Of a stretch of DNA of 29,454 nt, positions 1 to 23,316 are shown piece after piece. The stretch covers positions 1 to 29,454 of the forward strand of contig JAYVLF010000016.1 of assembly GCA_043759615.1 (NCBI GenBank), given 5' to 3'. The position numbers were made by a program, and so were the translations under genes. Each line of letters begins with the position of its first letter. Position 1 is the stretch's first letter. Source of the DNA: Minisyncoccota bacterium. Lineage in GTDB: Bacteria > Patescibacteriota > Minisyncoccia > Phycocordibacterales > UBA5272. Below the pieces are notes generated by a model. The model was not told where the DNA came from. It did no database searches and saw only the letters and a program-made list of their open reading frames with translations.

Positions 1-33
1 AAAAAAACGAGAACTACCGGAGCAGTTCTCGTT
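1..33 (-). terminator. Intrinsic terminator of hfq
   Basis: Perfect 10-bp stem (6-15 AACGAGAACT / 24-33 AGTTCTCGTT). On the minus strand it extends by G.U and C-G pairs to a c(UCCG)g loop and is followed by a U-tract running to position 1; 19 nt after the hfq stop. Confidence 0.85.
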
Positions 34-52
34 GGTGGGACCAGATATCAAA

Positions 53-304
53 TCATGAAGGAGGAGTCATCTCTTCCGTCTTTCCAGGCTTAAATTTAAT
101 ATCGCGACCTGGGACGATGGTGGATATCGCATGCTTGAAAACCATCTGGGTCACGGTGCTCTTAAGCAATACGACGTACTGGTCAAATGACTCTATCTGC
201 CCCTGCAGCTTGATACCGTTCACCAAGTAGAGCGAAACAGGGACGCTCTCGAGTCGCAACTGATTCAGAAATGGGTCTTGCAAAAGTTGTCCTTTGTTGG
301 TCAT
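53..304 (-). CDS. hfq: RNA chaperone Hfq (Sm-like), proteobacterial type
   Basis: 83 aa with [24 protein letters not shown] and FKHAIST motifs of Sm1/Sm2; strong SD upstream. Confidence 0.97.
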
Positions 305-308
305 TACG

Positions 309-317
309 ACCTCCTTT
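309..317 (-). promoter_or_regulatory. Shine-Dalgarno site of hfq (AAAGGAGGT)
   Basis: Minus strand reads AAAGGAGGT-CGTA-ATG. Confidence 0.85.
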
Positions 318-367
318 GAGTTAAATTATAAAAAGAGTTTTGGTTAGTAAGATAACTAATCTCTCTC

Positions 368-396
368 ATAATAAACTATTATCATACTTTTGTCAA
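368..396 (-). promoter_or_regulatory. Sigma70-type promoter of hfq
   Basis: TTGACA (396-391), 17-nt spacer, TATTAT (373-368). Confidence 0.7.
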
Positions 397-424
397 ATAA
401 AGAAAATGAAGATAAGGTCTGGGC

Positions 425-1393
425 TTACTTCCTTTTATTGTGGAACTTTTCCCACTGTTCACGGAGAAACTTGTTCGTAACATTCGTATATATCTGAGTG
501 GTGGCGATAGAGGCGTGACCAAGCATCATCTGTACAGTGCGAAGATCGGCACCATTGTATAGTAAATCAGTGGCAAAAGAGTGGCGGAGAACGTGAGGGG
601 TGCACTTCTTACTGATACCAGCTAGAGCTGCATACTTTTCGATTATCCTCTCGACACTTCTCGTGGTTAGCCTGACTGACTCCTGTTTCACTAGACGACT
701 CTGGGCGCGCGGAGAATTATCTATGATGAGAGCCTCATCTATATCAACTCTCTTGTTTAGATAATTTTTTATACTCTCTTTAGCAACATCACTGATGAAC
801 ACCACACGTATCTTTCCACCTTTTCCTCTCACGGATAACTCACTCACAGAGAGGTCTATATCCCGATCCAGTGCACAGAGCTCACTCACACGTAGCCCAG
901 TAGAGAAGAGTAGATCAATGATGAGTATGTCACGAAGATTGCCACCCTCACTCACACTTTGAAATAGCCTCCTCAGTTCTGCGTCGGTCACCAGATCCAG
1001 TTCACGCTGTGAAGTTTTGGCTAGCTCTATCTTTTCTGGGTCGTAGCATAGAGTGCCACGCTTTCGCATGTATTTTAGAAATGCCCGGAGAGCGATGAGG
1101 TGATAGTTCTGAGTTTTCTTGTCGAGAGTTTTCACATTCACACTGCTAGCTATTTTGTTCTGATTCTTCACAGCTCTCGCCCGTGAAGCTGATGTATTTT
1201 CAGATGGAAGTCTATTTAAAAAAAGTCTATACTCGCGCATCTTCCCATCAGTAATACTGTCGATATTCTCACTATCAAGAAAAGTTATGAATCTAGAAAT
1301 ATAGTGGTCATAGTTGCGAGCAGTGAGGCGAGATCTACCTTTTTCTATTTCTGTGTACTCGAGGAATTGATTTTTGTATTCAGTTAAGTTCAT
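425..1393 (-). CDS. xerC: Tyrosine recombinase, XerC/XerD family
   Basis: N-terminal SAM-like domain (FLEYTEIEKGRS...NY) and all catalytic residues: GLRVSEL (R), GKGGK (K), HVLRH (HxxR), LGH, TQIY (Y). XerC versus XerD cannot be resolved by eye. Confidence 0.9.
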   Translation of the reverse strand: MNLTEYKNQFLEYTEIEKGRSRLTARNYDHYISRFITFLDSENIDSITDGKMREYRLFLNRLPSENTSASRARAVKNQNKIASSVNVKTLDKKTQNYHLIALRAFLKYMRKRGTLCYDPEKIELAKTSQRELDLVTDAELRRLFQSVSEGGNLRDILIIDLLFSTGLRVSELCALDRDIDLSVSELSVRGKGGKIRVVFISDVAKESIKNYLNKRVDIDEALIIDNSPRAQSRLVKQESVRLTTRSVERIIEKYAALAGISKKCTPHVLRHSFATDLLYNGADLRTVQMMLGHASIATTQIYTNVTNKFLREQWEKFHNKRK

Positions 1394-1440
1394 GATGAAT
1401 ATGATTGTATTTAAATTATATCACAATGTCGTAAAATAAT

Positions 1441-1469
1441 TTGTATAAAAGCAATAAAAGGAATATAAT
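1441..1469 (+). promoter_or_regulatory. Sigma70-type promoter of orphan gene
   Basis: TTGTAT (1441-1446), 17-nt spacer, TATAAT (1464-1469). Confidence 0.6.
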
Positions 1470-1500
1470 CAGAGAAATTGCTCATTTTAATTTTATTTAA

Positions 1501-1508
1501 AGGGAGGA
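1501..1508 (+). promoter_or_regulatory. Shine-Dalgarno site (AGGGAGGA)
   Basis: GGGAGG ends 5 nt before ATG 1513. Confidence 0.75.
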
Positions 1509-1512
1509 TGAT

Positions 1513-2181
1513 ATGCCTAGCATTACAGCAAAAACTGCTATCGAGGCTAAATTGTTAAAAAGTATTTATGCGGGTGGAAACGTGATAAGAACAGAAGACC
1601 TGGTTTTAGATGTAAAAAAGATCATGACCCAAGAAGGGGATGTGTTAACTGCTGAGAAGATGGCAAAAGTAATTGGACTGGATATACCAACAGAGTGGTA
1701 TGAAGAAAGTTTACTAACTGCCGTATGCACAGGTGATTTATATGGGGCTACACACTCACTCGCCAAGATAAAAAGAGGGTTTGAGGCTAGTGAAACAAAA
1801 ATTCTTCTCGAGCAAATAATCACAAATGGAGATATTGTTGCATTAAAAAAATTTCAAACACATTCTGGCGAGGTCTTCCATTTGGCTGTTTGGCAAAATA
1901 CTTTACTAATCAAAACCGTTAAACTTTTATGGATAAAAAAATATAAGGAGCTTGGTCCGACAGTTCCAATTGAGAGATTTCACTCTGCATACAGATCTGC
2001 AGTAACAGGGTTTAAAATCAAAAGCAATGATAATCATGTTCTAGATCTCATAAAGAAAACTTTTATGGTCTTTAGTAACGGAACCATGTCCCAGTTTGTA
2101 TTTGCCTTATCACAGATGGAGACAAATCCTGAAATCATGGATATGGCTCATGAGATTGCGCAAGATTCTCCTATTTTTTGA
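1513..2181 (+). CDS. Hypothetical protein (orphan, predicted alpha-helical, no signal peptide or TM)
   Basis: 222-aa ORF with promoter, SD and terminator; no family recognised. Confidence 0.8.
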   Translation: MPSITAKTAIEAKLLKSIYAGGNVIRTEDLVLDVKKIMTQEGDVLTAEKMAKVIGLDIPTEWYEESLLTAVCTGDLYGATHSLAKIKRGFEASETKILLEQIITNGDIVALKKFQTHSGEVFHLAVWQNTLLIKTVKLLWIKKYKELGPTVPIERFHSAYRSAVTGFKIKSNDNHVLDLIKKTFMVFSNGTMSQFVFALSQMETNPEIMDMAHEIAQDSPIF

Positions 2182-2186
2182 GACCA

Positions 2187-2226
2187 CAACCCCGATTTTG
2201 CCTAGCAAAATCGGGGTTGCTTTTTT
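2187..2226 (+). terminator. Intrinsic terminator
   Basis: Perfect 15-bp stem CAACCCCGATTTTGC (2187-2201) / GCAAAATCGGGGTTG (2205-2219), then C and T6. Confidence 0.9.
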
Positions 2227-2235
2227 ATACTATTA

Positions 2236-2244
2236 TGTTATAAT
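2236..2244 (+). promoter_or_regulatory. Extended -10 promoter of rpsO (leaderless)
   Basis: TGTTATAAT, 7 nt before ATG 2252. Confidence 0.7.
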
Positions 2245-2251
2245 GTCTCAT

Positions 2252-2521
2252 ATGTTAACTACACGCAAAAAATTAAACGTTATCAAATCTGCACAGATTC
2301 ACGATACAGACACTGGTAGTCCAGAAGTACAGATAAGCATACTTTCGAGAAGAATCGACGAGCTTGCAAATCATCTAAAAACTCACAAAAAAGACAATCA
2401 CTCTCGCCGTGGTCTCATACAAATGGTTTCTGACAGAAGAAAACATTTGAAATATTTGCAAAACAACGATACTAAGAGATATAAAACTATCACTAGTACA
2501 CTAGGACTCAAGTCAAACTAA
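2252..2521 (+). CDS. rpsO: 30S ribosomal protein S15
   Basis: HDTDTGSPEVQISILSRRIDELANHLKTHKKDNHSRRGL motif. The 89-aa start at 2252 is preferred over the track's 2096, which runs through a terminator. Confidence 0.97.
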   Translation: MLTTRKKLNVIKSAQIHDTDTGSPEVQISILSRRIDELANHLKTHKKDNHSRRGLIQMVSDRRKHLKYLQNNDTKRYKTITSTLGLKSN

Positions 2522-2525
2522 TACA

Positions 2526-2562
2526 AAAAATAAAACTGCAACACTATTGCAGTTTTATTTTT
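2526..2562 (+). terminator. Intrinsic (potentially bidirectional) terminator after rpsO
   Basis: 16-bp inverted repeat AAAAATAAAACTGCAA / TTGCAGTTTTATTTTT with a 5-nt loop. Confidence 0.8.
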
Positions 2563-2643
2563 GTGTGTTATACTTTAGTAGTTAGTCAATTTTTATAAAG
2601 AAAGGATACGTAAGTTAAGTAATTTTAATACAAAAACAAAAAT

Positions 2644-3219
2644 ATGTCAGTAATACAGCACACTTCTCAAAGGGTTGCAGTTCTCATAGATACACAAAAT
2701 CTATATCATAGTGCCAAGAATTTATATAGTGCGAGGGTGAATTTTAACAATCTACTCATCGACGCCGTGGGTGGTAGGCAACTAGTTCGTGCCATCGCAT
2801 ATCTGATCACTACAGAGTCTCAAGATGAGGCACAATTTTTCGATGCGCTTCTCAAGATGGGAATAGAGACCAGACACAAAGATCTGCAAATATTTCATGG
2901 TGGATCAAAAAAGGCTGACTGGGATGTAGGTATAGCGATAGACGCTATACGTATAGCCAAGAAAGTGGATAGTATAGTTCTGGTTACAGGAGATGGGGAT
3001 TTTATCCCACTAGTTGAACACTTAAAGAGTGAAGGGGTGCAAGTAGAGGTAGTTTCATTTGGTAGGTCTACCAGCTCAAAACTAAAAGAAGCAGCTGAAG
3101 CATTCATGGATATGGATGAAGAGAGTAGTAGATATCTGCTTGGCTCTCACATGACAAAACCATCGATGATAAGAAAGTACAAGAAATCCACAAACAAAAA
3201 TCCAGATAGTATAGTATAG
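2644..3219 (+). CDS. NYN-domain (LabA/DUF88, PIN-like) putative ribonuclease
   Basis: VLIDTQN, K-x-DWDVGIAID and VLVTGDGDFIPLV acidic active-site motifs. Confidence 0.9.
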   Translation: MSVIQHTSQRVAVLIDTQNLYHSAKNLYSARVNFNNLLIDAVGGRQLVRAIAYLITTESQDEAQFFDALLKMGIETRHKDLQIFHGGSKKADWDVGIAIDAIRIAKKVDSIVLVTGDGDFIPLVEHLKSEGVQVEVVSFGRSTSSKLKEAAEAFMDMDEESSRYLLGSHMTKPSMIRKYKKSTNKNPDSIV

Positions 3220-6422: not shown

Positions 6423-6445
6423 TAATACACAATATATGTGTACAA
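6423..6445. promoter_or_regulatory. Inverted pair of DnaA-box-like 9-mers in a divergent promoter region
   Basis: TAATACACA (6423-6431) and TGTGTACAA (6437-6445), each one mismatch from TTWTNCACA. The second is identical to the first oriC box. Confidence 0.35.
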
Positions 6446-6494
6446 AGCAAGCTCTTTTATTCACTTATTGTTGTATAATAATATTAACAAACAC

Positions 6495-9400
6495 ATGGCA
6501 TTTGAATCTATAAACTTGTCCCCAAATGAAAAAACTGGGCCTGAAACACCAAAAATAAAACTTTCTAATGGGGATTTTGTGAATCTTGAAAATAAGCTTG
6601 CAACTGATCATAATCATATTAACAAAATAGCTAATAAACTTAATGCAAAAGAGAAAATTTTCGCTCATTCTGTGAAGAGGGCAGAGGCAGTCATCTCTGG
6701 CATAAAAGAAGTGACAAAAGATGATGGGGCGGAGAGTTCTCATGATATAGAAGTATCCTCTTCAGAGTTTAGACGATTCAAATATGCTCAGCTAGATGGA
6801 AACAAGGTTAAGGGTCGTGGCGAAGAGAGGTTGGTTAAGAAAATGGGTGGAGAAATACGCAGTCGGTGGATAGAAGACAATAAAAGAATAAAAAATCTTA
6901 CCAAGAAGATAGAAGGTTATGTTGCTAGCAATCAAAGAGACCAGGAAACTATCTCTAGCTTACGTTCTGAGCTTCTTGCTGCAGAGACCCTCTTAAACAC
7001 TCACCGTGCTACTATCAAAAATTTGCGTGATGATAAAAATATATCAAAGGAGCTAAAGGCTGAAGCGATTCAATACGCAAATGAAGATGCTGAACAGATA
7101 AACAAACTTACTGGGGTCTTAAATATGACTGAGTCAATAAAAACTGAAAAAGAAAATAATATAGAGAACAAAAAAGATCCTGAGTTTAAATTTTTGCAGC
7201 TAGAGGAGTTAGCAAAAGAGGCATCCAAAGACTATTCAGAATATCCGGCAATAAGAAAATATATCTCAAAAAGTCGTGAGATGAACCACAGTCTCGGGTA
7301 TAAAAACAAAACTGAGCTTTTAAGTGATTTTCACGAGTTAGACATGGCTGAGATAGAGATGCAGTTCCGAAGAGCAAAAAAAGCTCAGCAGAAGCTAAAA
7401 GATAGAATAGAAAGTATTCATGTTATGAATAATGGTCAAAAAGTTGCTTTTGAAAAAGAGTTAGCACATTTAAAAAATTTACAATCTCATGCATATAACA
7501 CAGTCAACAATCAACTAAATAACTTTTTGGATTTACTGAGAAATAAGTCACTAGAGCTAGTGACTAGCGACAAAACTACAACCACATCAAACACCTCGCA
7601 AACAGAACTAGTATCTCCTTTTACTCCACCCATCGTCGACACATTTACGGATGACACATCAACTGAGCCGACACAACCAGAAGACCCCATAACAACTGCA
7701 GAACATGAGGTTCAGATAGAAAGCGCTACCAGTCTAAGTCAGATCAAAAATAGAGTAGCCGTCAATAACTTAAAATTTTCTCGTGCTCAGACTGCACTAT
7801 ATAGTAAAAAGACTGTTGATGGATATACAGAGTTTAAAAGAGAGTTATCTGAGATAGTGGTGAACCTAAACTCTCTCGCAGAGGATATTGCTGATCTAGA
7901 ATTTCAAAAAGAAGAATTCGTAGCAAATAAGAGTGGAACACCAGAAACCCCAGAGCAAAAAGGAAAGAGGAGTAAGAGAAATGAAGAGTCTAGGAAAAAG
8001 TTTGAGTCTGAGAAAACTACACTAAATGATAAGGTGACCAGACTAACAGGTGAGATAAACAAAATCATCGGCGGAGGCAAAAGTCTCGAAGACATAATCA
8101 AAGAAATAGGAGTTAGTAACGCTGACAAGCTGATTAAAATATCTGACAAAGCAAAACTTACAAAAGCAGAGGCTGACGAAGTTCTAAGTGAGATCAAAGA
8201 AGCTTTGAAAAAGAAATCTACCGATAAAGGTTTCTCTGACTCTGAGAAGATGGACTTTGAAATTAAATTATCTATACTGAGCTCTGAAGAGGCTAAGCAC
8301 AAAGAAAGCCTAAACAAAATAACTCCGAACAGGGGCAATATCGTAGAGGCAGCCAGATACGGTGTAGCCACTACGATACTACTATCTATATCTGAGACGA
8401 TATCTAAAGCCCAGGAAACACTAGAAAAGAAAAACGAAATCTCAGCTGACGAGAAATTTGAAAAGTACCAAAAAGCCCTAAAAGAAGAAAGGGTGAAGAT
8501 GGTAGCCAAGAAACTAGAAATACAGAAATTAGATCTCGAGTACAAGGCTGGAGTAGAGGAAGAAAAGATTGCTAATAAAAAAGAAAAGCTCTCTATACTC
8601 GCCCAAGTGGAAGCAGAGAAGAAGCTCGCCAAAGCCGAACATAGGAAACCAAATCTGACTGGTATAGATACTGCCGCACTAAAGGTGCTCAGACCTCTTC
8701 GTAGATTTTTCCAATTTAAACACAAAGCTTACAAGCTAAATCGTGAGAGTCTTTGCAATGAGGCAAGGGGACTTATGGATGAGGTGACTTATAACTATCA
8801 TCATCTTGCAGAGTTCGAAGGGGTTGAGTTAAATGAAGAGAACAGTGTGAACTTCATAAAAACTTTTGCACGTAGTCCTAACTTCAAAAACAAAACTGAA
8901 ACTAAATACGAGATAGACTCTACGAGTGATGTGATCACAGAGAAGGGGGCGCTAAGAAAGAGCTTTGGGGATATGCTAGGAAACATGTTAGAAGATGGTA
9001 ATGGCTGGGGAGCGGTAGGGGCTGGACTCGTTATGGGAGCAGCGATAGGAACTGCGGCTGTAGTGGGTGGAACAAAGAGTCTTTTCACAAAAAATCCAAA
9101 TGGATCAGCACCAGTAACAGCAAGCAAGAACGCGTCTCAGACAGCAAACTCTATCAATCATCCAGCGCCAGAGGCTAGCACTCGTAACTCCGGAGCAAGA
9201 ACTGCAGCCTATATAGGTGGCGGAGCTGGAGTAGGTGCGGCAGCGGTAGCTCTCGCAATGTCAGGAGCAGCCGCACAAGCACCAACCGCAGACACCACGA
9301 AAATCCTGACAACAACATCGACAACAACTCCTGCAGCAGCAACAGCAACTCCGAAGAAAACTTTTAGTATAAAAGAAAAGGAAAATACCCTACACTTTGC

Positions 9401-9791
9401 AGATCAAGATAAGAACTTTACTATTCGTCAGATGAAAAACCCTGATGGCTCTACAGATATAGTTCTCGACATGCCCGCCAACTATGCGGATGACAACAAT
9501 ATGGCCGCAAGATATGAGCACGCCAAAGACTCTCTAGTAAAAGAGATATTAACAAACCCAGAACTAAAAAGCTACAGAGATCAAATATCTAAAAATGGTA
9601 AGCTCCTGATAAATACGGGACGAGAGACAAATATCATAGTTCCTATGACTATCAATATCTCTGACGTAGGGAACAAAGTGGAAACTGTAGCAGAGGCGAA
9701 CTTTGAGAATCCTGCGATGATAAAACTAGCCGCGGACAGGGTGGCAAATAGATTTGGAGAGGGTTATAAATCTTACAAATACACAGCATAA
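6495..9791 (+). CDS. Large hypothetical protein: K/E-rich coiled-coil region, two Gly/Ala-rich hydrophobic segments, Thr-rich linker, C-terminal domain
   Basis: Open for more than 3.2 kb. Start 6495 (MAFES..., after TATAAT 6474-6479) preferred over 6438. Confidence 0.85.
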   Translation: MAFESINLSPNEKTGPETPKIKLSNGDFVNLENKLATDHNHINKIANKLNAKEKIFAHSVKRAEAVISGIKEVTKDDGAESSHDIEVSSSEFRRFKYAQLDGNKVKGRGEERLVKKMGGEIRSRWIEDNKRIKNLTKKIEGYVASNQRDQETISSLRSELLAAETLLNTHRATIKNLRDDKNISKELKAEAIQYANEDAEQINKLTGVLNMTESIKTEKENNIENKKDPEFKFLQLEELAKEASKDYSEYPAIRKYISKSREMNHSLGYKNKTELLSDFHELDMAEIEMQFRRAKKAQQKLKDRIESIHVMNNGQKVAFEKELAHLKNLQSHAYNTVNNQLNNFLDLLRNKSLELVTSDKTTTTSNTSQTELVSPFTPPIVDTFTDDTSTEPTQPEDPITTAEHEVQIESATSLSQIKNRVAVNNLKFSRAQTALYSKKTVDGYTEFKRELSEIVVNLNSLAEDIADLEFQKEEFVANKSGTPETPEQKGKRSKRNEESRKKFESEKTTLNDKVTRLTGEINKIIGGGKSLEDIIKEIGVSNADKLIKISDKAKLTKAEADEVLSEIKEALKKKSTDKGFSDSEKMDFEIKLSILSSEEAKHKESLNKITPNRGNIVEAARYGVATTILLSISETISKAQETLEKKNEISADEKFEKYQKALKEERVKMVAKKLEIQKLDLEYKAGVEEEKIANKKEKLSILAQVEAEKKLAKAEHRKPNLTGIDTAALKVLRPLRRFFQFKHKAYKLNRESLCNEARGLMDEVTYNYHHLAEFEGVELNEENSVNFIKTFARSPNFKNKTETKYEIDSTSDVITEKGALRKSFGDMLGNMLEDGNGWGAVGAGLVMGAAIGTAAVVGGTKSLFTKNPNGSAPVTASKNASQTANSINHPAPEASTRNSGARTAAYIGGGAGVGAAAVALAMSGAAAQAPTADTTKILTTTSTTTPAAATATPKKTFSIKEKENTLHFADQDKNFTIRQMKNPDGSTDIVLDMPANYADDNNMAARYEHAKDSLVKEILTNPELKSYRDQISKNGKLLINTGRETNIIVPMTINISDVGNKVETVAEANFENPAMIKLAADRVANRFGEGYKSYKYTA

Positions 9792-12037: not shown

Positions 12038-12856
12038 ATGATAAAGATACAAGCTAAAAAGTCCCTCGGTCAAAACTTCCTAAAGAGTGAGGCGGCTTTG
12101 GCGGCTATAGTTGAGTGTAGTGAACTTAGCTCGTCCAATGTCGCCCTCGAGATAGGGCCAGGCACAGGGATACTCACTGAGAGGATTTTAAATACTGGAG
12201 CCGAAGTCATCGCCATCGAGAAAGACGATAGATTGATAGAATTACTAACTGAGAAGTTTAAAAGTTTCGTAGATGTGGGTAAATTTACTCTTATCCACGC
12301 CGATATCATGGATATAAACATCAAAGCTTTATTAGAGGGGCAGGGTGCAAAAAATAAAAACAGAGACTTTAAGCTCGTAGCCAACATACCCTACTATCTT
12401 ACTGGAGCCATCATGCGTAAATTCATAGATGAGAATCTGGCAACCAGTATGACACTCCTGGTCCAAGACGAAGTGGCGAAACGCGTTGTCTGCAGGGATG
12501 GCAAAGAAAGTCTACTGTCACTCTCGGTAGAGAGCTACGGCAAAGCCAAATACGTGAAAAAGGTGCTAGCTGGGAGTTTTGTCCCCGCACCAAATGTCGA
12601 CAGCGCGATAATTTATATAAAAAAAGATACTGAGTCTATATTTAAGAACGAAAATGAGAGGGAGCTATTTTTCAAACTCATACATGCTGGTTTCGCTCAC
12701 AAAAGGAAAACTATGATGCATAATCTGAAAATAAATAGTGAAGAATACTGGCCGAACATTGCAAAGGTATTTGAAAATCTGAATATAGACCCGAAAATTA
12801 GAGCCGAAGATGTGAACATGAACTCTTGGATGAGAATCGTACATGCTATAATATAG
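12038..12856 (+). CDS. rsmA: 16S rRNA adenine dimethyltransferase RsmA/KsgA
   Basis: KKSLGQNFL, EIGPGTGILT, IEKDDRL, VANIPYYLT, FVPAPNVDS, FAHKRKT. Confidence 0.96.
   Translation: MIKIQAKKSLGQNFLKSEAALAAIVECSELSSSNVALEIGPGTGILTERILNTGAEVIAIEKDDRLIELLTEKFKSFVDVGKFTLIHADIMDINIKALLEGQGAKNKNRDFKLVANIPYYLTGAIMRKFIDENLATSMTLLVQDEVAKRVVCRDGKESLLSLSVESYGKAKYVKKVLAGSFVPAPNVDSAIIYIKKDTESIFKNENERELFFKLIHAGFAHKRKTMMHNLKINSEEYWPNIAKVFENLNIDPKIRAEDVNMNSWMRIVHAII
12844..12852 (+). promoter_or_regulatory. Extended -10 promoter embedded in the last codons of rsmA
   Basis: TGCTATAAT, 6 nt before ATG 12859. Confidence 0.6.
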
Positions 12857-12858
12857 CA

Positions 12859-13728
12859 ATGCAACTAGATCACAAAAAAATACTGATTTCTATCCTGGTA
12901 GCGCTTTCTGCTGCTGGGCTTATGTATCTAGCTTATGACTACTACAGTAACAGCACTAACAATATTACAAAAAACAATGGGGGTCAGCTAATCTCCCTAG
13001 AGACATTTAATCAAGCTCTCGAGAGACCAGAGGACAATGAAATACTAAACAGTATCGTCAGCGCAAATGGTGGTCCAGCTGAATATGCAAAGTCTGTAGG
13101 ACCATATGACCCCATGAACACTAACCTAACCGAGGGCATGGCTCGTGACCTATATATAGCCGCACAATACTCGTCCATAGACAAAGTCGTAAACTCACCG
13201 GAGCTTATGGCTGCTGCTCTCGACAAGAGTCTCCGTGATTATACTGCGGTTCCGGTTAACTATCAGATAAAAACTTCTGACAAGATGACTCTCTCTGAGA
13301 TACGCACATATGGTAATGGTGTAGGGGCGATGCTAAAATATTTCACCATCATCACGCCTGCCTTACTCATCTCAGCTGATGATATTATAAACAATAAAGC
13401 GACACAGAGACTGGCAAAGCTAACTGAGCTTGCACAAAAAGCGACAGACCTCTGCTCAATGTACACACGCTCTGCTCTGGTGCCTATAGAGATATCTGAT
13501 ACACACAAGAAACTCCTAGCCGAGTGTGATACATTAGCAAATATCGCCGTTGCTCTCTCTCAGAGAGGTGAGGATCCGCTAAAGCTAGTTATAGAGATAC
13601 CAAAGTTCGCAAATGTCGCTACCGAGACCAAGACTCTAGCCAAAGCCTATGATGTCTATCTAGACGGTAAGAGGATATTTTATAAACCTGAAGAACCGGG
13701 CTACAGCATCAGCCTAAACGCTAATTAA
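12859..13728 (+). CDS. Hypothetical N-terminally anchored membrane protein, helical ectodomain (first gene of T4SS-like cluster)
   Basis: TM KKILISILVALSAAGLMYLAY right after ATG 12859. The track start 12826 overlaps rsmA. Confidence 0.8.
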   Translation: MQLDHKKILISILVALSAAGLMYLAYDYYSNSTNNITKNNGGQLISLETFNQALERPEDNEILNSIVSANGGPAEYAKSVGPYDPMNTNLTEGMARDLYIAAQYSSIDKVVNSPELMAAALDKSLRDYTAVPVNYQIKTSDKMTLSEIRTYGNGVGAMLKYFTIITPALLISADDIINNKATQRLAKLTELAQKATDLCSMYTRSALVPIEISDTHKKLLAECDTLANIAVALSQRGEDPLKLVIEIPKFANVATETKTLAKAYDVYLDGKRIFYKPEEPGYSISLNAN

Positions 13729-13741
13729 CAATCTCAAAAAC

Positions 13742-15583
13742 ATGAAAAACATCTTAATCAAATATATAGCCAGCATAATGATGATCACAGGACTCCTCTT
13801 CGCCCCGACCACGCCACTACTATCACCTCCACCAAAGGCTGAAGCTCAGTTGGCGGTTTTTGATATTCCACTAACCATTGGATCTATCGGAGCCTGGATA
13901 ACACAAAATATTTGGTCCGCAGCTCAAGCAGCCCTTCAGTATTATGATAGCATCATGTCAACTAGTGGCTGGTTAAATGAATGGGTAATAAAACCACTGA
14001 TAAAAGCGGCCAGAAAGAGTCTGATAGATCAGATAAAAAATCAGACGATAACTTGGATCAATACTGGGTTCAAAGGTAAACCGCTATTCATGACTGACCC
14101 ATCTCAACTTGCAAAGAACATGGCTACTGAGCAGCTAACCCTGATAAAAAAACAAGTGCTCGATGGAGTAGGTGGAGTTGCCAATGAACTCAGATATGCA
14201 AACAAAGAGATAGCGAAGAGTCTGGTGATAGAAGCTAGATCAAGCAAGACCGCACTGTCAAAAGCCCTAACCCCTACCAAGGATAAGGTTATCGCTGAGA
14301 GTCTCTGTGCTGATGATAATATGATAAAGACCGTGGCAAAAAGATCGGGACAGACGGAGGCAGAAGTGCGTACCACATACTGTGGCACAGAGAATAGTAA
14401 AGAGAAATATGACGCGCTGACAAACTGTTTCGCTTATGACTTTAACTGTGGTGGCTGGGGAGCCTTCCTCTCTCTCACTCAGAACCCGGTAAATGATGAT
14501 CAGCAGAGACTTGCAGTAGCCAAGAACTCACTGGAGAGCAGCAAGGTTAGTGAATCAAAGAAAACTGAGACTGAACTCATCGCCAATGGAGGATTTTTCA
14601 ACATGAAAACCTGCTCTGAGAGATCAGAGCCTACAGCAGCCCAAAAAGAAAACGGGGACCCCGGTATATGTATCAAATACATAAGCCAAACCCCAGGAAC
14701 AGCAGTCAGAGACTCTCTCACTCAAGTGGTACAAGATCCTATATCTCAACTACAACTCGACGATGATATAGCCTCTGCGCTCTCAGAAATAGCATCGGCC
14801 TTTATAAGCTCTGTTATGACAAAAGGCCTGACAGCGATCAATGGTGCTGTAGCTGAGGCTTCAGCTATGACAGAAGCCTGTATAAATGAGCGTCAGACGG
14901 AGATCAGTAATGCCATAAATGGTGTGACCACCACCAAAAAGGTGGCCTCCAAGTGTGGAGATGGAGAAAGTGGTGTTAATCTAAAAGACGGTGTTGATTG
15001 GAAAACCATAGCAACAGCTATCAAGAATAAGCCTACCACAAGTAAAGAGATACTCGCTGCAAAAAAGGCTGGCAATGACTATTCAGACTCTATAGAATTA
15101 GAAGCTGATGGTGCCTCTCAGGCCGCCAAAAAAGATAAAGAACTCGAACTCATGGTTAGTAAGTTAGATGGCACTTGTCAGGGGGCCTATCAGGGGAGCG
15201 TGGTTGCTCCTGAGCACGCAGAGCGTATAGCATCTCGCAACAAATCTCTAAAGATATATGGCTACCCGATCACAGGAGATGATGCTGTAGACAATTTGCC
15301 TCTAGGTGGTGGAGGGGTTGATGGTGGCATATACTTTGAGGGACTCTTTGGTTTTGAAACCGATGCGAATTGTAAGATAATAAAAGGAGAGTTTATCATC
15401 TATGGCATAGAAATACCTACTGGGTCTGTGAATCCTGACGGTAGTTATCAGGCTATATTTGATGGTCTCGAGGTAAACATGAAGACTGATGGCACTAGGA
15501 TATTTGGTATAGTAAATGAGTACGGATATCCTCATGCTAGAGGATATATGGAAGGAGTCTTTACACCAATGAAGAAAATTTAA
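13742..15583 (+). CDS. Exported Cys-containing protein, possible VirB5/TrbJ-like minor pilin or adhesin
   Basis: Signal peptide ending AEA, mature N-terminus QLAVFD, multiple Cys, directly upstream of the VirB6-like gene. The CDS is solid; the function is inferred. Confidence 0.75.
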   Translation: MKNILIKYIASIMMITGLLFAPTTPLLSPPPKAEAQLAVFDIPLTIGSIGAWITQNIWSAAQAALQYYDSIMSTSGWLNEWVIKPLIKAARKSLIDQIKNQTITWINTGFKGKPLFMTDPSQLAKNMATEQLTLIKKQVLDGVGGVANELRYANKEIAKSLVIEARSSKTALSKALTPTKDKVIAESLCADDNMIKTVAKRSGQTEAEVRTTYCGTENSKEKYDALTNCFAYDFNCGGWGAFLSLTQNPVNDDQQRLAVAKNSLESSKVSESKKTETELIANGGFFNMKTCSERSEPTAAQKENGDPGICIKYISQTPGTAVRDSLTQVVQDPISQLQLDDDIASALSEIASAFISSVMTKGLTAINGAVAEASAMTEACINERQTEISNAINGVTTTKKVASKCGDGESGVNLKDGVDWKTIATAIKNKPTTSKEILAAKKAGNDYSDSIELEADGASQAAKKDKELELMVSKLDGTCQGAYQGSVVAPEHAERIASRNKSLKIYGYPITGDDAVDNLPLGGGGVDGGIYFEGLFGFETDANCKIIKGEFIIYGIEIPTGSVNPDGSYQAIFDGLEVNMKTDGTRIFGIVNEYGYPHARGYMEGVFTPMKKI

Positions 15584-15605
15584 AGAAAATCAAGATAACA
15601 CAGAG

Positions 15606-15640
15606 ACAGTATGTTCATACGACATACTGTTTTTGTTTTT
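15606..15640 (+). terminator. Intrinsic terminator between the exported-protein gene and the VirB6-like gene
   Basis: 9-bp stem ACAGTATGT (15606-15614) / ACATACTGT (15622-15630) followed by TTTTGTTTTT. Confidence 0.7.
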
Positions 15641-15657
15641 TATATGTTAAAATATAA
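15638..15657 (+). repeat. 20-nt promoter-region element TTTTATATGTTAAAATATAA, copy 1
   Basis: Identical to 22289-22308; contains TGTTAAAAT (extended -10). Confidence 0.7.
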
Positions 15658-15661
15658 ACAA

Positions 15662-17755
15662 ATGATGCAGAGACTCAGAAGATTAATCTCAAAAACTTTG
15701 ATTGGGTTTTTTGTGCTTTTCTTTACTTTATCTCCGATGTTTAATCTAGTAGACACGACTTTTGCACAGACATATGATGAGAATGGAAATGTGATAAATG
15801 GTGCGAATACGACTCAGCCAGACACTGCAGCACCCAGCACAACATTTAATGCAGCCAAAGATAGTCAGGCAGCCAACGCCCCCTCAGTAGGAGGAGAGAA
15901 TGTAGATCCGACAACTGCTGCAGGGAAAACAGCAGCAGCAGCTGCCGCAAACAAAACAGCTGAAAAAACTCCATGTACGGCAGAAAGTGCTTTCCAAGCA
16001 TTTTTTAATAACATTAATCCAGCTCACTATGCTTGTCTCGCTACTTTTTGGGTGATGAAGCTTATCATAACTATCGCAGGAGGTTTAACATATTTATCTA
16101 CAAAGCTTTTTGACATTTCGGTTGAAAAATTCATACTAAAAATATCTAGCTTGTTTGGGGACACAAACTCTGAAAATAGTGGCATATACTCAGCCTGGAA
16201 AGTAGTGAGAGATATGGCAAACATTGCCGGATTCTTTGGGGCTATATATGCTGGACTGATGTATATCATAGGGCGTACAGATAATCTGAAAAAGATATTT
16301 GTGAACCTGCTCATGTTCGCAATACTTACGAATTTCTCTTTCCCTATAGCAAAATTCGCAATAGATATAGCAAATGTAGTTAGTCTAAATGTATACGGCA
16401 GCATGACCAGTACGGCAGATGGGCAGTATCACATGGAAAAAGGTTTAGGGGATGCTCTTATGGGTAAGCTAGGCTTGTCACTTTTTGTAACCAATGAGAA
16501 AACTATTGATCAGAGTGCTATAGGAAACAATCTCAGCTCTTGGACTGTTTCATTTTTACTTATAATATATTTACTTTTTGCTGTTTTTATTTTTATGGAG
16601 GCAGCACTATTTGTTTTGACTAGAGGACTAACTCTTGTTATATATGTGATATTCTCACCTCTCATGTTTATCGGTGGCCTCGCGCCATTTCTCTCTGAGA
16701 TGCACAAAAAGTGGCGAGAGAACTTCGTAGGTGCAGTTCTTGTTGGACCAATACTTATGATACTCCTCTGGGTTGCATTCAAGATTTTAGATGCCGTAAA
16801 AACTCTTTCTAGTATTGCCGGGATTAGATCTGTGACTGGTGATGCTGGCGCTGAAACCTTAGTGTCGTCTTCTTTGGTTTTGATCTTTTCTGGACTAGCT
16901 TTGCATTACGCTATCAAGATGGCAAAGGAATATAGTCATGAGGCTGGATCTCTAGTGAGTGGGGTTATGAGTGGGGTAGGCACTCTGGCTGGAGCTGCGG
17001 TTACTGGCGGAGCATCTATGGCACTTCGTGGCACTGTGGGGCGTGCAGGGGCAGCCATGGCTGAGAGTAAGTGGGTGAAGGAGGGTGCGGAGAGTGGAGG
17101 GTTTATGCGTCGTATGGCTTCACGTGGAGTGGGGAACACGGGGAACGCCATGACCAAAGCAAATGGTAAATTTGCTGGGGCGACATTTACAAAAACTTTC
17201 AATGCTGGTCTAGGAGCAAACGCTACAAATATGAATGTCGGCAAGAGCTACAAAGATGTGAAGGATGAGGCGACAAGGAAAGAGTTCGAAGATGCTGGAG
17301 GCAAACGCGGCCTCGAGCTAGCCCAAGAGAAAGCGGTGCTAGTAGCAAAACATGAGAGTATATCAGCCCCGAACAATAGCAGAGACAACGTGAACACAGC
17401 AAGTAGCTCTGTTCTGATGCGCGCCTCCGCAGACCTCGCTGAAGTTGAAAGGAAACTAAAAGAAAAGAAAGAAAGCCCTATCGAGTATACTGGTAAAGAA
17501 GAAGATGTTAAGGGTCTCGAGTTAGAGGCTGCCGGTAAACAAGCAAGCTTTGCCAAGGTTAATGCCAAAGCTGAAAGCATAAACAATAGACTTGAAGAGC
17601 GTGCTACTGAGAACAAAAACAAAGTAGCAGAAAAAGAAGTTGCCTATGCCAAGGTACAAGAGAAAAATGCTGATATACAAAGAGCGAAAGAGCTGAGAGC
17701 AAAGCTGGCCGGAGTAAAAGCAGCGACCCCAGCAACTCCAGCAGCCACCGCATAA
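15662..17755 (+). CDS. VirB6/TrbL-like polytopic membrane protein
   Basis: Signal/anchor, Ala/Thr-rich linker, about 7 TM segments (e.g. YSAWKVVRDMANIAGFF; MLFAILTNFSFPIAKFAIDIAN), Gly/Ala-rich cytoplasmic tail and coiled-coil end. Start 15662 or 15665; the track start 15611 lies inside a terminator. Confidence 0.75.
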   Translation: MMQRLRRLISKTLIGFFVLFFTLSPMFNLVDTTFAQTYDENGNVINGANTTQPDTAAPSTTFNAAKDSQAANAPSVGGENVDPTTAAGKTAAAAAANKTAEKTPCTAESAFQAFFNNINPAHYACLATFWVMKLIITIAGGLTYLSTKLFDISVEKFILKISSLFGDTNSENSGIYSAWKVVRDMANIAGFFGAIYAGLMYIIGRTDNLKKIFVNLLMFAILTNFSFPIAKFAIDIANVVSLNVYGSMTSTADGQYHMEKGLGDALMGKLGLSLFVTNEKTIDQSAIGNNLSSWTVSFLLIIYLLFAVFIFMEAALFVLTRGLTLVIYVIFSPLMFIGGLAPFLSEMHKKWRENFVGAVLVGPILMILLWVAFKILDAVKTLSSIAGIRSVTGDAGAETLVSSSLVLIFSGLALHYAIKMAKEYSHEAGSLVSGVMSGVGTLAGAAVTGGASMALRGTVGRAGAAMAESKWVKEGAESGGFMRRMASRGVGNTGNAMTKANGKFAGATFTKTFNAGLGANATNMNVGKSYKDVKDEATRKEFEDAGGKRGLELAQEKAVLVAKHESISAPNNSRDNVNTASSSVLMRASADLAEVERKLKEKKESPIEYTGKEEDVKGLELEAAGKQASFAKVNAKAESINNRLEERATENKNKVAEKEVAYAKVQEKNADIQRAKELRAKLAGVKAATPATPAATA

Positions 17756-17759
17756 ATAT

Positions 17760-18371
17760 ATGTTAACAAAAGAATTACAAGATGAACTAAATATAGAAAT
17801 AGATAAATCTAGCCCAGAGGTGCAGACTTTTCTCCGTGACAAATACTTTTCTGACACTTTAGGACTGATCGGGAGAGTAAACACCTTGAACGAAAGCCAA
17901 AAAGATGCTCTGTATCTCGAAGTAGTGATGCAAGTTCTCGGACTAAATGACTATGACGATTTTGCTGACTCGATAAAAAATGAGCTCAAAACAGGGGAGG
18001 AGGAGCTACCAGCGGAAAACGTCAAACAAATAGTAAATGATATAAATATTTATGTTTTTGATAAAATAAAAAGAGAGGAGAAGAGTGATGTACCAGTTGA
18101 TACAGTGATCAGTCCAAACATAAACGGTATTGAGAGTGGGGAAACAGTCATGCCAACACCATCACTGCGAGAAAGTATCATGAAAAATACAGGAGTAGAG
18201 GACAAATATAGTATAGGATTCCTCACAAAACCAAATTTGGTGAATGATGAGACGAAAACTGTGCCCGTGATAACAGAAAAGGTAGTGGACACAGTGGTTG
18301 CCCCAGAAATCATGCCTGACGTGTATAGAGAAATGCCTGAACCAGTGGATAAGACCATAAAACACGAATAA
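17760..18371 (+). CDS. Hypothetical acidic cytoplasmic protein of the T4SS-like cluster
   Basis: 203-aa ORF 4 nt after the VirB6-like stop; helical N-domain and low-complexity tail. Confidence 0.8.
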   Translation: MLTKELQDELNIEIDKSSPEVQTFLRDKYFSDTLGLIGRVNTLNESQKDALYLEVVMQVLGLNDYDDFADSIKNELKTGEEELPAENVKQIVNDINIYVFDKIKREEKSDVPVDTVISPNINGIESGETVMPTPSLRESIMKNTGVEDKYSIGFLTKPNLVNDETKTVPVITEKVVDTVVAPEIMPDVYREMPEPVDKTIKHE

Positions 18372-18395
18372 AATCTGCTATTATATATAGTATAT

Positions 18396-18851
18396 ATGCA
18401 GTTCAGAGTTCCCCAATTCATAGACATAGAAGACAAAATACTCGGACCTCTCTCTTGGAGGCAGTTTGCTTATGTGCTCGGAGCAGCCGCAGTTGCTTAT
18501 GTGTCCTTGCGTCTACTAGACTCAAAAGTTACAGCTCTCATAGTAGGTGGGCCGTTTGTAGCACTATTCCTGGCTCTTGCTTTTGTACGTATCAATGACA
18601 GACCATTTGTAGATACATTACAAAATGCTTTTTCATACTTCTTTGGAGGTAATATTTACACTTGGCAAAAAGACAACACCATTAAACCAGAAAACTCTGC
18701 TTCATATGATAGTTCTCGTTCAGAAAATGTTAAAAAAGAAATCAATAACTCTGTAGAGAGAAGATCAAATCACTACGAAAGACAAAATCTAAAAGATCTC
18801 GCTGTGGGACTTGATATTAAGAGTGATAAAGGTGAAGATGATATGATATAA
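18396..18851 (+). CDS. prgI: PrgI family (VirB3-like) membrane protein
   Basis: MQFRVPQFIDIEDKILGPLSWRQF signature, two TM helices, INDRPF. Confidence 0.88.
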   Translation: MQFRVPQFIDIEDKILGPLSWRQFAYVLGAAAVAYVSLRLLDSKVTALIVGGPFVALFLALAFVRINDRPFVDTLQNAFSYFFGGNIYTWQKDNTIKPENSASYDSSRSENVKKEINNSVERRSNHYERQNLKDLAVGLDIKSDKGEDDMI

Positions 18852-18852
18852 T
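18844..18852 (+). promoter_or_regulatory. Extended -10 promoter overlapping the prgI stop codon
   Basis: TGATATAAT, 6 nt before ATG 18859. Confidence 0.6.
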
Positions 18853-18858
18853 AAAACT

Positions 18859-19488
18859 ATGTTAGGCACAGCATCACAAAAATTCATACCGATAAAAACT
18901 ATAAGAGATGGACTACTCATACTAAACAACAATGAGTATAGAGCAGTCTTGATGACTAACTCACTAAACCTTGCACTGAAGGGTGAAGATGAACAGACAG
19001 CAATCATAAAACAATTCCAATCATTTTTCAATTCACTAGATTTCCCTGTGCAGATATTCGTCCAGTCCAGAAGAGCAGATATATCTCCGTACATAGCTCT
19101 ATTGAATGACAGAATAAAGAGTGCTGAGGGTGAACTACTAAAGCTACAAATCGTAGAATACATCGACTACATAAGGACTTTTTCGGAGAGTATCAACCTG
19201 ATGACAAAACACTTCTTCGTGGTTGTACCTTATGTGCCGGCAACCATCTCATCGTTTTCTGACGCTTCTTCTTCACTCTTTTCTTTTGGTAAAAAAGAAC
19301 AGCTACTCAGTGAGGAGAGTAAAAACTTCGGAGAGATCAGACAACAGATGCTCGAGAGAGTGAGTGTGGTAACCGAGGGTCTCACTCGCTGCGGCCTCCA
19401 CGTATCACAACTAGGAACAGAGGAACTCATCGAACTATTTTATGAACTATTCAATCCAGGAGACGAAAGTAAATCTGTAAATCAATAA
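18859..19488 (+). CDS. Conjugal-transfer-associated protein resembling the N-terminal region of Gram-positive-type VirB4 (TrsE/PrgJ)
   Basis: IRDG..., NLALKGEDEQTAIIKQFQSFFNSLDFPVQIFVQSR, KHFFVVVPY; located between prgI and virB4. Confidence 0.7.
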   Translation: MLGTASQKFIPIKTIRDGLLILNNNEYRAVLMTNSLNLALKGEDEQTAIIKQFQSFFNSLDFPVQIFVQSRRADISPYIALLNDRIKSAEGELLKLQIVEYIDYIRTFSESINLMTKHFFVVVPYVPATISSFSDASSSLFSFGKKEQLLSEESKNFGEIRQQMLERVSVVTEGLTRCGLHVSQLGTEELIELFYELFNPGDESKSVNQ

Positions 19489-19498
19489 TAATAAACAC

Positions 19499-21322
19499 AT
19501 GAGCATATTAGACATATTTAAAACCAACAAAGAAGAACCTACAAATGGTGTGTTAGGCGCAGCTATGCTAAAGAGTAATCTTCCTGATGATATATACAAG
19601 GCGGCAGAGCAGACTCTCCAAGACATCATCGCCCCTTCAGCGCTCAAAATAGAACCAAAAAACTTTTCTATCGGGGACATAAAGGGTCGCACATATTTTG
19701 TTATGTCTTACCCTCGCTACCTTAGCGACAACTGGCTCAGTCCACTTATAAATCTGGATAAGGTTTTTGATGTGTCTATACACGTCTCTCCTATAGATAC
19801 TGGTGACATCATGAAGAAGTTCCAAACCAAAGTAGCCGAAGTTGGTAGTCAGATGTTAACCAGAGAAGAAAAAGGTATGGTGCGTGATCCTATGTTAGAG
19901 ACTGCCTATCAAGATCTAGAAGATCTGCGTGACAACCTGATGCAAGCCGAAGAGAAGATGTTTGAAGTTGGGGTATATATCACCATATATTCACGTGATG
20001 ACAAAGAGTTAGATAAACTAGAAAACGAAATCAAGGGGATGTTTGAAAGTAAGCTTATACAAATTCGTCCGGCACTATTTCAGCAAGATGCTGGCTTTCG
20101 TAGTGTTCTCCCTCTTGGTCATGATGAGATAAATATCACGAACAAGCTAAACACGTCACCACTTTCATCACTGTTCCCGTTTGTCTCTTTTGACCTTACT
20201 AGCGACAAAGGAATACTGTACGGTATAAACAGGCACAGTGGGGGGATGGTGCTGTTTGATAGATTTGGTATGGAGAATTATAACTCTATCATGTTTGCAA
20301 AGTCTGGTGCAGGCAAGAGCTTCACCATGAAGCTTGAGATTCTTCGCACGATGATGTTCGACACCAACGTCATCATCATCGACCCTGAACGTGAATATGA
20401 AAATTTAACTGAAGCGGTAGGTGGTAGATATTTTAATATTTCACTCACCAGTGAGCATCATATTAATCCATTTGATCTACCTCTCCCAGGCCCTGATGAG
20501 TCTATGAGTGATGTGCTGCGTACGAACATTATTACTCTCGTCGGACTTTTCCGTGTTATGTTAGGCGGCCTCACTCCAGGGGAGGATGCTATAGTAGATA
20601 GAGCTATCACTGAGACCTATGCTTTGAAAGACATCACTCCTGATACTGACTTTGCGGATATAGATCCACCACTACTCTCAGACTTTGAGATGGTGCTCGG
20701 TGGACTAGAAGGGTCAGAGGGGCTACTAGAAAAGCTACAAAAATTCACAAAAGGTAGCTGGGCAGGATTCCTAAATAACCCAACAAATGTAAACATTAAT
20801 CAGAAATGCGTGTCGTTTTCCATACGTGATATGGAGGATGAATTGAAACCTGTAGCCATGTTCCTGATCTCTCACTATATATGGAACTCTGTTAGACGTG
20901 AACTCAGAAAAAGACTCCTGGTGGTAGACGAGGCATGGATCATGATGAAGAGCCCAGATACGGCAAGCTTCCTTTTTGGACTTGCAAAGAGAGGAAGAAA
21001 ATATTTCTTAGGCCTTGCCACCATCACACAAGACGTAGGAGACTTTTTGAAAAGTGAATACGGTGTGCCGATCATCACCAACAGTAGTATACAAATACTA
21101 CTAAAACAATCTCCAACAACAATTGACCTGGTACAAAAAACTTTTAACTTAACAGATGAAGAAAAGTTTTTACTCCTTGAGAGCAACATCGGTGAGGGGA
21201 TATTCTTCGCTGGACTAAAACACGTGGCCATCAAAATCATCGCCTCCCACACAGAAGAACAGATCATCACCAGTGATCCGTCTGAGATACTCAGATTAAA
21301 ATCTCTAAAAGAGAACAAATAA
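19499..21322 (+). CDS. virB4: VirB4-like T4SS ATPase
   Basis: Walker A AKSGAGKS, IIIDPEREY, HINPFD, Walker B LLVVDEAW, KRGRKYFLGLATITQDVGDF. Confidence 0.9.
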   Translation: MSILDIFKTNKEEPTNGVLGAAMLKSNLPDDIYKAAEQTLQDIIAPSALKIEPKNFSIGDIKGRTYFVMSYPRYLSDNWLSPLINLDKVFDVSIHVSPIDTGDIMKKFQTKVAEVGSQMLTREEKGMVRDPMLETAYQDLEDLRDNLMQAEEKMFEVGVYITIYSRDDKELDKLENEIKGMFESKLIQIRPALFQQDAGFRSVLPLGHDEINITNKLNTSPLSSLFPFVSFDLTSDKGILYGINRHSGGMVLFDRFGMENYNSIMFAKSGAGKSFTMKLEILRTMMFDTNVIIIDPEREYENLTEAVGGRYFNISLTSEHHINPFDLPLPGPDESMSDVLRTNIITLVGLFRVMLGGLTPGEDAIVDRAITETYALKDITPDTDFADIDPPLLSDFEMVLGGLEGSEGLLEKLQKFTKGSWAGFLNNPTNVNINQKCVSFSIRDMEDELKPVAMFLISHYIWNSVRRELRKRLLVVDEAWIMMKSPDTASFLFGLAKRGRKYFLGLATITQDVGDFLKSEYGVPIITNSSIQILLKQSPTTIDLVQKTFNLTDEEKFLLLESNIGEGIFFAGLKHVAIKIIASHTEEQIITSDPSEILRLKSLKENK

Positions 21323-21325
21323 TTT

Positions 21326-22288: not shown

Positions 22289-22308
22289 TTTTATATGTTA
22301 AAATATAA
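22289..22308 (+). repeat. 20-nt promoter-region element TTTTATATGTTAAAATATAA, copy 2
   Basis: Identical to 15638-15657; TATAAT (22304-22309) lies 7 nt before ATG 22317. Confidence 0.7.
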
Positions 22309-22316
22309 TTAACTTT

Positions 22317-23294: not shown

Positions 23295-23301
23295 AAATCT
23301 G

Positions 23302-23310
23302 TGATATAAT
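23302..23310 (+). promoter_or_regulatory. Extended -10 promoter (leaderless)
   Basis: TGATATAAT, 6 nt before ATG 23317. Confidence 0.65.
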
Positions 23311-23316
23311 TTTCTT

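Follow-up and report, generated by a model that had tools for sequence, protein, structure and literature searches.

We believe that the gene for the RNA chaperone Hfq found at one end of the analysed DNA (the window: 29,454 bp, the entire contig C16 of a 476-kb MAG, G000, in 45 contigs and 83% complete) is a functional chromosomal gene, which passed long ago from a Burkholderiales-type bacterium into the ancestor of one subclade of a CPR family and has been inherited there since; we put the probability of this reading at roughly 0.8. The identity of the gene, its physical linkage, its distribution, the donor type, the purifying selection on it and its conserved leader are matters of direct observation.

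The open reading frame at 53-304 on the reverse strand encodes 83 amino acids. The protein matches PF17209 (Hfq) with 95.8 bits (cut-off 27), the NCBIfam equivalog NF001602 “RNA chaperone Hfq” with 128.5 bits (cut-off 95) and TIGR02383 with 91 bits (cut-off 61.7). It is a true member of the Hfq family, betaproteobacterial in type and encoded on a CPR chromosome; considered as a protein, it is an ordinary Hfq. A preliminary description, made from the sequence, had reported a complete hfq with a TTGACA-17-TATTAT promoter and a UNCG-loop terminator, and by the profile matches and a consensus scan each of these listed features is real. The features of the locus are as follows.

1-33, reverse strand: intrinsic terminator with a 12-bp stem, a 4-nt UCCG (UNCG-type) loop and a T-run (33-6 in the stem-loop scan)
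53-304, reverse strand: hfq coding sequence, 83 aa, Burkholderiales-type, rim motif RLES (family models, alignment)
309-317, reverse strand: AAAGGAGGT, a motif like the Shine-Dalgarno sequence, 5 nt before the ATG (from the sequence; function uncertain, the 16S rRNA of the lineage having no anti-SD)
344-359, reverse strand: 5'-proximal leader hairpin, TTAGT / loop TATCTT / ACTAA (homology with relatives in the genera g1 and g5)
368-396, reverse strand: sigma-70-type promoter TTGACA-17-TATTAT (consensus scan, 11 of 12 positions)
425-1393, reverse strand: xerC/D-like tyrosine recombinase gene, single-copy and chromosomal, upstream of hfq

The T-run of the terminator is the end of the contig. An Rfam search of window positions 1-3000 gave no credible match.

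Since hfq lies 52 nt from the contig end, a direct test for a chimera was needed. Mis-assembly at the hfq-xer junction, a danger named in the preliminary description, is excluded by an independent contig at 100% identity, by contigs spanning the junction in four samples and by matched depth. The independent contig is L147, a Logan contig of 9172 bp from a public run, which encodes an identical Hfq protein. It consists of C16:497-1 at 100%, 77 new bases, all 5038 bp of C24 at 100%, and then C32; the contigs of the genome are thus joined at 100% identity within one Logan contig, C16 in reverse, 77 bp, C24 forward, and C32 overlapping C24 by 99 bp. The start of C24 holds the genes that follow hfq in relatives (a gene for 109-111 aa, an M50-type peptidase gene and xth). 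In each of four separate sediment samples a contig runs from hfq across the intergenic region into xer, of which it includes 73-211 bp. The word depths of the hfq-side and xer-side contigs in these samples are 19.4/18.1, 15.9/16.3, 6.5/6.15 and 5.7/5.9, so the two co-vary about threefold. A second, variant contig (depth 3.4; runs X3 and X4) shares the terminator stem at window 1-33 and diverges right after the hfq stop codon; it is therefore assigned to a co-occurring related strain.

The base composition of the gene is unusual for its genome. The GC3 of hfq is 50/84 (0.595) against 0.337 +/- 0.053 for 365 long ORFs (genome mean about 0.34); the preliminary description had counted by hand about 49 G/C-ending codons in 82, visibly more than in dnaA/dnaN. 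The hfq value is attained by one of the 1242 in-frame 252-nt chunks of the genome and exceeded by just three of 546 greedily called ORFs, those spurious-looking; hfq has the highest GC3 among the recognisable genes. Codon bias linked to expression was considered as the source of the high GC3 and rejected, as none of the ORFs of at least 150 aa attains the hfq value. A RecR-like gene of the same genome (C30:3271-3900, forward strand) has a GC3 of 0.548, also unusually high, and hfq is therefore not the sole outlier. GC3 was also rejected as a clock for the age of the transfer, because across the clade members it spreads from 0.36 to 0.81 while synonymous sites are saturated.

Where flanking sequence was inspected, the gene order is the same in nearly all hfq-bearing genomes of each genus: xer, hfq and xth in g5; xer, hfq, the 109-aa gene, the M50 gene (on the opposite strand) and xth in g1, the genus of the window. 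In G011, a gene for 739 aa is inserted between xer and hfq. In several relatives the hfq locus lies mid-contig, on contigs of 49-94 kb. In G001 and G010, g1 genomes without hfq, xer directly abuts the M50 gene, and hfq and the 109-aa gene are both gone; within g1, the 109-111-aa gene is thus present with hfq and absent along with it. In the Xer tree these two genomes form a clade of their own within g1, which fits one deletion. In the same tree g1, g5, g4 and g8 make up one clade (100/99), and g2, g3, g6 and g7 fall outside. Genomes of g5 and g2 that have no hfq carry other genes between xer and xth. The following contents were seen in this gap.

L032:2420-3540: uppS
L033:350-1500: a CHC2-zinc-finger-like ORF and a second small ORF
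L034:985-1498: a small membrane protein
L030:2421-2432: no gene

Because the cargo differs among the relatives without hfq, we regard the gap as a variable slot. The 109-111-aa protein (L147:528-863, forward strand, which is the start of C24; L006:8397-8726) has an N-terminal membrane anchor and four conserved cysteines, and gave no family match. Further along, the window holds a T4SS-like cluster (12826-24552) with a PrgI-family protein, a TraG/VirB4-type ATPase and a T4SS pilin fused to a VanY-type peptidase, flanked by rsmA and by downstream housekeeping genes; several large ORFs in this cluster, as well as a 1117-aa ORF at 6438-9791, have no Pfam match.

The preliminary description had called the genome Patescibacteria-like, and it was right: the genome has 476 kb and no ribosomal protein L30, and the genomes in a sample of 400 from the phylum measure about 0.4-1.3 Mb. 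L30 (PF00327) was found in none of five genomes searched, four of them 100% complete, and in 13 of 14 reference genomes used as a control. The absence of L30 is a known CPR trait, reportedly since the 2015 work of Brown et al. From genome sizes, the loss of L30 and gene content we infer a genome of the CPR/Patescibacteria type.

The census of Hfq was made by a six-frame search with PF17209. Within the family, Hfq occurs in 23 of 96 genomes and is confined to two genera, with four of 13 genomes in g1 (the genome of the window included), 19 of 53 in g5, and none of 30 in six other genera. An even sample of the phylum outside the family gave no Hfq in 400 genomes (320 genera, 145 families); the earlier statement that Hfq lies outside the normal gene set of this phylum is well founded. 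In an even sample of the order (400 genomes), the sole match outside the family came from G822, a 1.3-Mb genome of another family. There, a GC-richer region (L148:1462-1965, reverse strand) encodes an Hfq-like protein of 167 aa with two domains and a strongly diverged sequence, which is probably an independent, unrelated acquisition. Two further variants were seen among the genomes of the family: a fused two-domain Hfq of 143 aa in G108 (L026:1480-1911, forward strand), located in the same xer-xth slot, with a second domain about 49% identical to the window Hfq, and an additional Hfq fragment beside a run of N in G102 (L017/L029). Our literature searches found no paper describing Hfq in CPR bacteria.

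As to the donor, an alignment of 22 Hfqs of the clade was used to scan one genome per species. The best 80 named loci among the matches listed are all from Betaproteobacteria, mostly Comamonadaceae, and are 72-87% identical to the window protein; among them are Ramlibacter, Polaromonas, Hydrogenophaga, Variovorax, Rhodoferax and Limnohabitans, and also Paraburkholderia, Pandoraea, Rhodocyclaceae, Sulfuriferula and Methylobacillus. Single clade members reach 91-97% protein identity to Burkholderiales Hfqs, and the DNA identity of clade hfq to the sampled donors is 88% at most. In a tree of 130 rows all 23 CPR rows fall inside the group of all named Burkholderiales-type sequences (SH-aLRT 83), apart from the gamma-like rows and from the alpha-like rows (support 99). 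At six columns that discriminate beta from gamma sequences, the window has four beta states, one gamma and one other; the clade is mostly beta, and eight members are beta at all six. The best loci listed, the tree group and the beta-state residues thus agree with the proteobacterial, and more exactly betaproteobacterial, origin proposed earlier. The inference of horizontal acquisition also stands, given a beta-type sequence and no Hfq in 400 genomes elsewhere in the phylum.

What has to be given up is the recency and uniqueness that the preliminary description implied: since hfq sits in the same slot in 23 of 96 species, is under purifying selection and has a leader made by the lineage, it is old and inherited. 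That description had set a widespread, vertically inherited Hfq against acquisition; of the two things thereby joined, the fresh acquisition fails and the horizontal origin holds. As for selection, dN within the clade is about 0.1 and dS is saturated in most pairs; where dN/dS can be computed, its median is 0.06 and its maximum 0.18. The function of the gene has therefore been maintained over a long period.

The leader of hfq is shared by g1 and g5. Both genera have a TTGACA-17-TAGTGT/TATTAT promoter upstream of hfq, followed by a hairpin from 8-12 nt past the -10 box and then by AAGGAG(C/G)T. Boxes of the type TTGACA-17-TA(G/T)T(G/A)T stand upstream of hfq at about 14 of the 23 loci, in both genera, and a motif of the AAGG/GGAG type is kept in 21 of the 23 clade members. 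The promoter, hairpin and AAGGAG elements are absent from the Burkholderiales hfq leaders and from the hfq-less relatives compared. The hairpin stems show compensatory changes (GGC/GCC, GAC/GTC, GACC/GGTC, TTAGC/GCTAA, TTAGT/ACTAA, GAAACAG/TTGTTTC), with TTAGC..GCTAA and TTAGT..ACTAA in g1, and GGC..GCC, GAC..GTC and others in g5. RNAalifold on MAFFT alignments of the leaders returned no consensus structure, the stems of the two genera being offset by one column; in place of such a consensus, each sequence was folded separately and compared with its shuffles. All 21 leaders fold more stably than their own shuffles (mean z -1.72, for related sequences that are not independent samples). The hairpin (window 344-359, reverse strand, and its equivalents in L002-L027) has no Rfam match. 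Placed at the very 5' end of the mRNA, the hairpin may shield the transcript from RNase J or another nuclease that depends on the 5' end, or may serve for autoregulation.

The preliminary description took AAAGGAGGT for a Shine-Dalgarno sequence. The motif is present and conserved; its canonical Shine-Dalgarno function is improbable in view of the 16S rRNA. None of the 22 16S 3' ends sampled in the order contains CCUCC (13 from the family, five of them from the genus of the window, and nine from other families), and for this reason the motif is unlikely to serve as a canonical ribosome-binding site. After helix 45 the tails of the order read GGAUUAAUUC... (loci L156-L183): GGAU-UAAUUC... takes the place of GGAU-CACCUCCUU, and the vicinity is free of CCUCC. 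These ends were located by the Rfam SSU model, a strict sequence pattern having matched none of them; in the genome of the window itself the 3' end is unassembled (C23:12634-13519 is the 5' part). Of 355 long genes in this genome, 18 have an SD-type 5-mer ahead of them, which is near background; the signal that prevails upstream is TATAAT, with its end 6-9 nt from the start codon, so the mRNAs are taken to be leaderless. Motifs complementary to the altered 16S tail showed no enrichment upstream of genes. In our literature searches we came across no paper on anti-SD loss in CPR bacteria.

The residues of the protein allow some statements about its function. The uridine pocket of the proximal face (Q8, F/Y42, K56 and H57 in E. 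coli) is present in the window protein as Q9, Y43, K57 and H58; the equivalent of Y55 is F, so that FKH replaces the nearly invariant YKH, the sole such change among the 23 clade members. The residues of the distal face that bind A-R-N repeats (Y25, G29, I30, K31 and Q33 in E. coli) are present as Y26, G30, I31, K32 and Q34, and G30, I31 and L33 are invariant across the clade alignment. The arginine patch of the rim (R16, R17 and R19 in E. coli) is reduced to RLES, in which the R16 equivalent alone is retained. The g1 relatives have RKEN, RVEK and RQQD at the rim, and g5 members mostly the donor-like RREH/RKEH. E. coli Hfq requires its rim arginines to anneal RNAs and to exchange strands but can bind RNA without them, and a lower number of rim arginines is associated with weaker sRNA function (PMC3753642).

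As for the partners of Hfq in RNA decay, a search of five genomes of the family detected no RNase E/G, Rho or PNPase. All five have RNase J; RNase Y turned up in the three from g5 and in neither of the two from g1. Judged from its sequence, the window Hfq would form an Sm-type homohexamer, being about 77-78% identical to solved hexameric Hfqs; likewise its binding of RNA and its role in the cell are deduced from the residues and the gene content. Because the binding faces are kept, the rim is eroded and the genomes searched have RNase J but no detected RNase E, Rho or PNPase, the likeliest role would be that of an RNA-binding and stabilising chaperone for the bacterium's own transcripts, in a decay setting like that of Gram-positive bacteria.

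Three other explanations of the gene can be dealt with together, and we consider each of them far from probable. The position of hfq 52 nt from the contig end and its atypical GC3 are what one would expect if this end came from a co-assembled proteobacterium through an error of assembly or binning; yet the independent contig runs on into native genes at 100% identity, contigs span the junction at equal depth in four samples, such junctions recur in 22 other assemblies (in some of them mid-contig on contigs of 49-94 kb) and the hfq leader is AT-rich, so that, on the evidence of contigs, a chimera has practically no chance of being the answer. An Hfq ancestral to the phylum and lost nearly everywhere is just as hard to credit with no match in 400 genomes across 145 families, and with a sequence that falls within the beta-type group and reaches 97% identity to Hfq of Burkholderiales. 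The preliminary description also suggested a factor directed at the host, and one may imagine Hfq exported by the T4SS-like machine of the window: the cluster at about 12.8-24.5 kb has PrgI, a VirB4/TraG-like ATPase and a T4SS pilin, and an Hfq of the donor type would suit the RNAs of a host. We find this proposal unsupported and very improbable. Nothing was seen that links hfq to the cluster, which lies 12.5 kb from this separate monocistronic unit; hfq is missing in 73 of the 96 family members and in all other sampled families of the order but one, and the rim patch decaying in g1 is a poor fit with matching the sRNA machinery of a host.

A less improbable, if still doubtful, competitor of one old transfer is a series of acquisitions, or repeated allele replacement by homologous recombination in the coding sequence, from various Burkholderiales donors into one xer-xth slot; the epibiont may take up DNA from its hosts, and these could then be the donors. 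In the ML tree, based on 83 columns, made by a quick method and largely unresolved, the CPR Hfqs are non-monophyletic and scattered among Burkholderiales lineages, and two starred branches pair single CPR rows with Limnobacter and with Hydrogenophaga. Single members are 95-97% identical to differing donor lineages, GC3 is very uneven (0.36-0.81), a spread that one event followed by clock-like amelioration would not predict, and the xer-xth slot is a variable site with other cargo in relatives without hfq. Hfq and Xer distances are uncorrelated (Mantel r = 0.19, p = 0.18): the Xer proteins of G005 and G007 differ by 4% over the part compared, yet their Hfqs are just 72% identical. Against this, the data are by the AU test compatible with a single CPR clade (p = 0.416), the top DNA identity to the sampled donors is 88%, and the AT-rich leader with its promoter, 5' hairpin and AAGGAG motif is homologous across both genera and unlike the leaders of the donors. 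A star-like divergence from a slow, donor-like ancestor would also place the CPR copies nearer to the donors than to each other. In the Xer tree g1 and g5 belong to one subclade with support 100/99. The uneven GC3 and the discordance between Hfq and Xer can be explained by such a star-like radiation, a donor-like ancestor and very unequal rates among lineages, or else by occasional allele replacement. We presume a single origin of the hfq genes of the clade, with good though not full confidence. Strong purifying selection together with the clade-specific promoter and 5' hairpin leader argues for one old acquisition, and the non-coding leader is the strongest argument for a single origin.

The events under one old transfer would be as follows. 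The ancestor of one subclade of the CPR family presumably took hfq from a Comamonadaceae-like donor of the Burkholderiales type, and just the coding sequence, with at most a few preceding bases, would have been transferred. It would have been inserted into the variable slot between the chromosomal xer and xth and may there have acquired a sigma-70 promoter made by the lineage, a leader with a hairpin at its 5' end, and an intrinsic terminator, which together would make it a monocistronic unit. Afterwards the gene would have been inherited and repeatedly lost, being kept in 23 of 96 species. The Sm-type hexamer is expected to bind U-rich RNA at its proximal face and A-rich RNA at its distal face, and to act on the bacterium's own RNAs. 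Because the rim is eroded in g1 (RLES as against RRER in E. coli and RREH in the donors), the window Hfq is probably a binder and stabiliser of RNA more than a fast annealer of sRNA to mRNA. Its usual partners RNase E, Rho and PNPase would be missing, and the cell around it would have RNase J and largely leaderless mRNAs.

In Proteobacteria, Hfq has a central place in RNA regulation. The strong purifying selection on the borrowed gene, in species between which synonymous sites are saturated, indicates that minimal cells can adopt and retain a foreign global RNA-binding protein, without RNase E, Rho, PNPase or ribosomes with an anti-SD; the borrowed hfq is in this sense a natural experiment on the function of Hfq alone. 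The donor type, a Comamonadaceae-like member of the Burkholderiales, hints at which hosts this uncultured lineage may have, and the hint can be tested. It is tempting to go further and to see Hfq as the hub of a rewired minimal post-transcriptional system (no anti-SD, leaderless mRNAs, no RNase E, Rho or PNPase), with the leader as an autoregulatory Hfq site in place of a ribosome-binding site and with the Comamonadaceae-like origin marking the natural hosts; we offer this extended picture as a speculation that will probably not hold in full. If it were true, the Comamonadaceae-like origin would amount to a concrete host prediction for the uncultured family.

Among known systems the Hfq of Burkholderiales is the closest. 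The N-terminal motif of 12 residues, a further stretch of 16 residues and the short tail are common to both; Hydrogenophaga Hfq is up to 87% identical to the window protein over residues 2-71, the clade consensus is nearly identical in sequence to Comamonadaceae Hfq, and the best solved relatives, PDB 3sb2 and 8p91, have about 77% identity to the window Hfq (3sb2 is presumably the Hfq of Herbaspirillum seropedicae). The differences lie in the setting and at the rim: the CPR copy occupies the xer-xth slot and has an AT-rich leader made by the lineage, the Burkholderiales leaders giving no match to it; the rim and pocket motifs are RREH/RKEH and YKH in Burkholderiales and RLES and FKH in the window; and the lineage of the window, unlike Burkholderiales, has no detected RNase E, Rho or PNPase.

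E. coli Hfq (PDB 1hk9) belongs to the same Sm fold family, and the equivalents of its proximal (Q8, K56, H57) and distal (Y25, I30, K31) residues are kept in the window. It differs at 15 of 67 aligned residues (about 78% identity), of which about 13 are in the Sm core, close to the figure of about 12 of 64 given in the preliminary description. The gamma-type F42, I44 and S51 and the RRER rim of E. coli are replaced in the window Hfq by beta-type or eroded states, and the long C-terminal tail of E. coli Hfq is lacking. The Hfq of Gram-positive bacteria (B. subtilis, S. aureus, L. monocytogenes; PMC3753642) works in a similar setting, with few rim arginines and with decay by RNase J/Y in place of RNase E; by sequence it is clearly different, the window protein scoring 60 bits to chains of the B. 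subtilis type and 109-117 bits to the proteobacterial chains.
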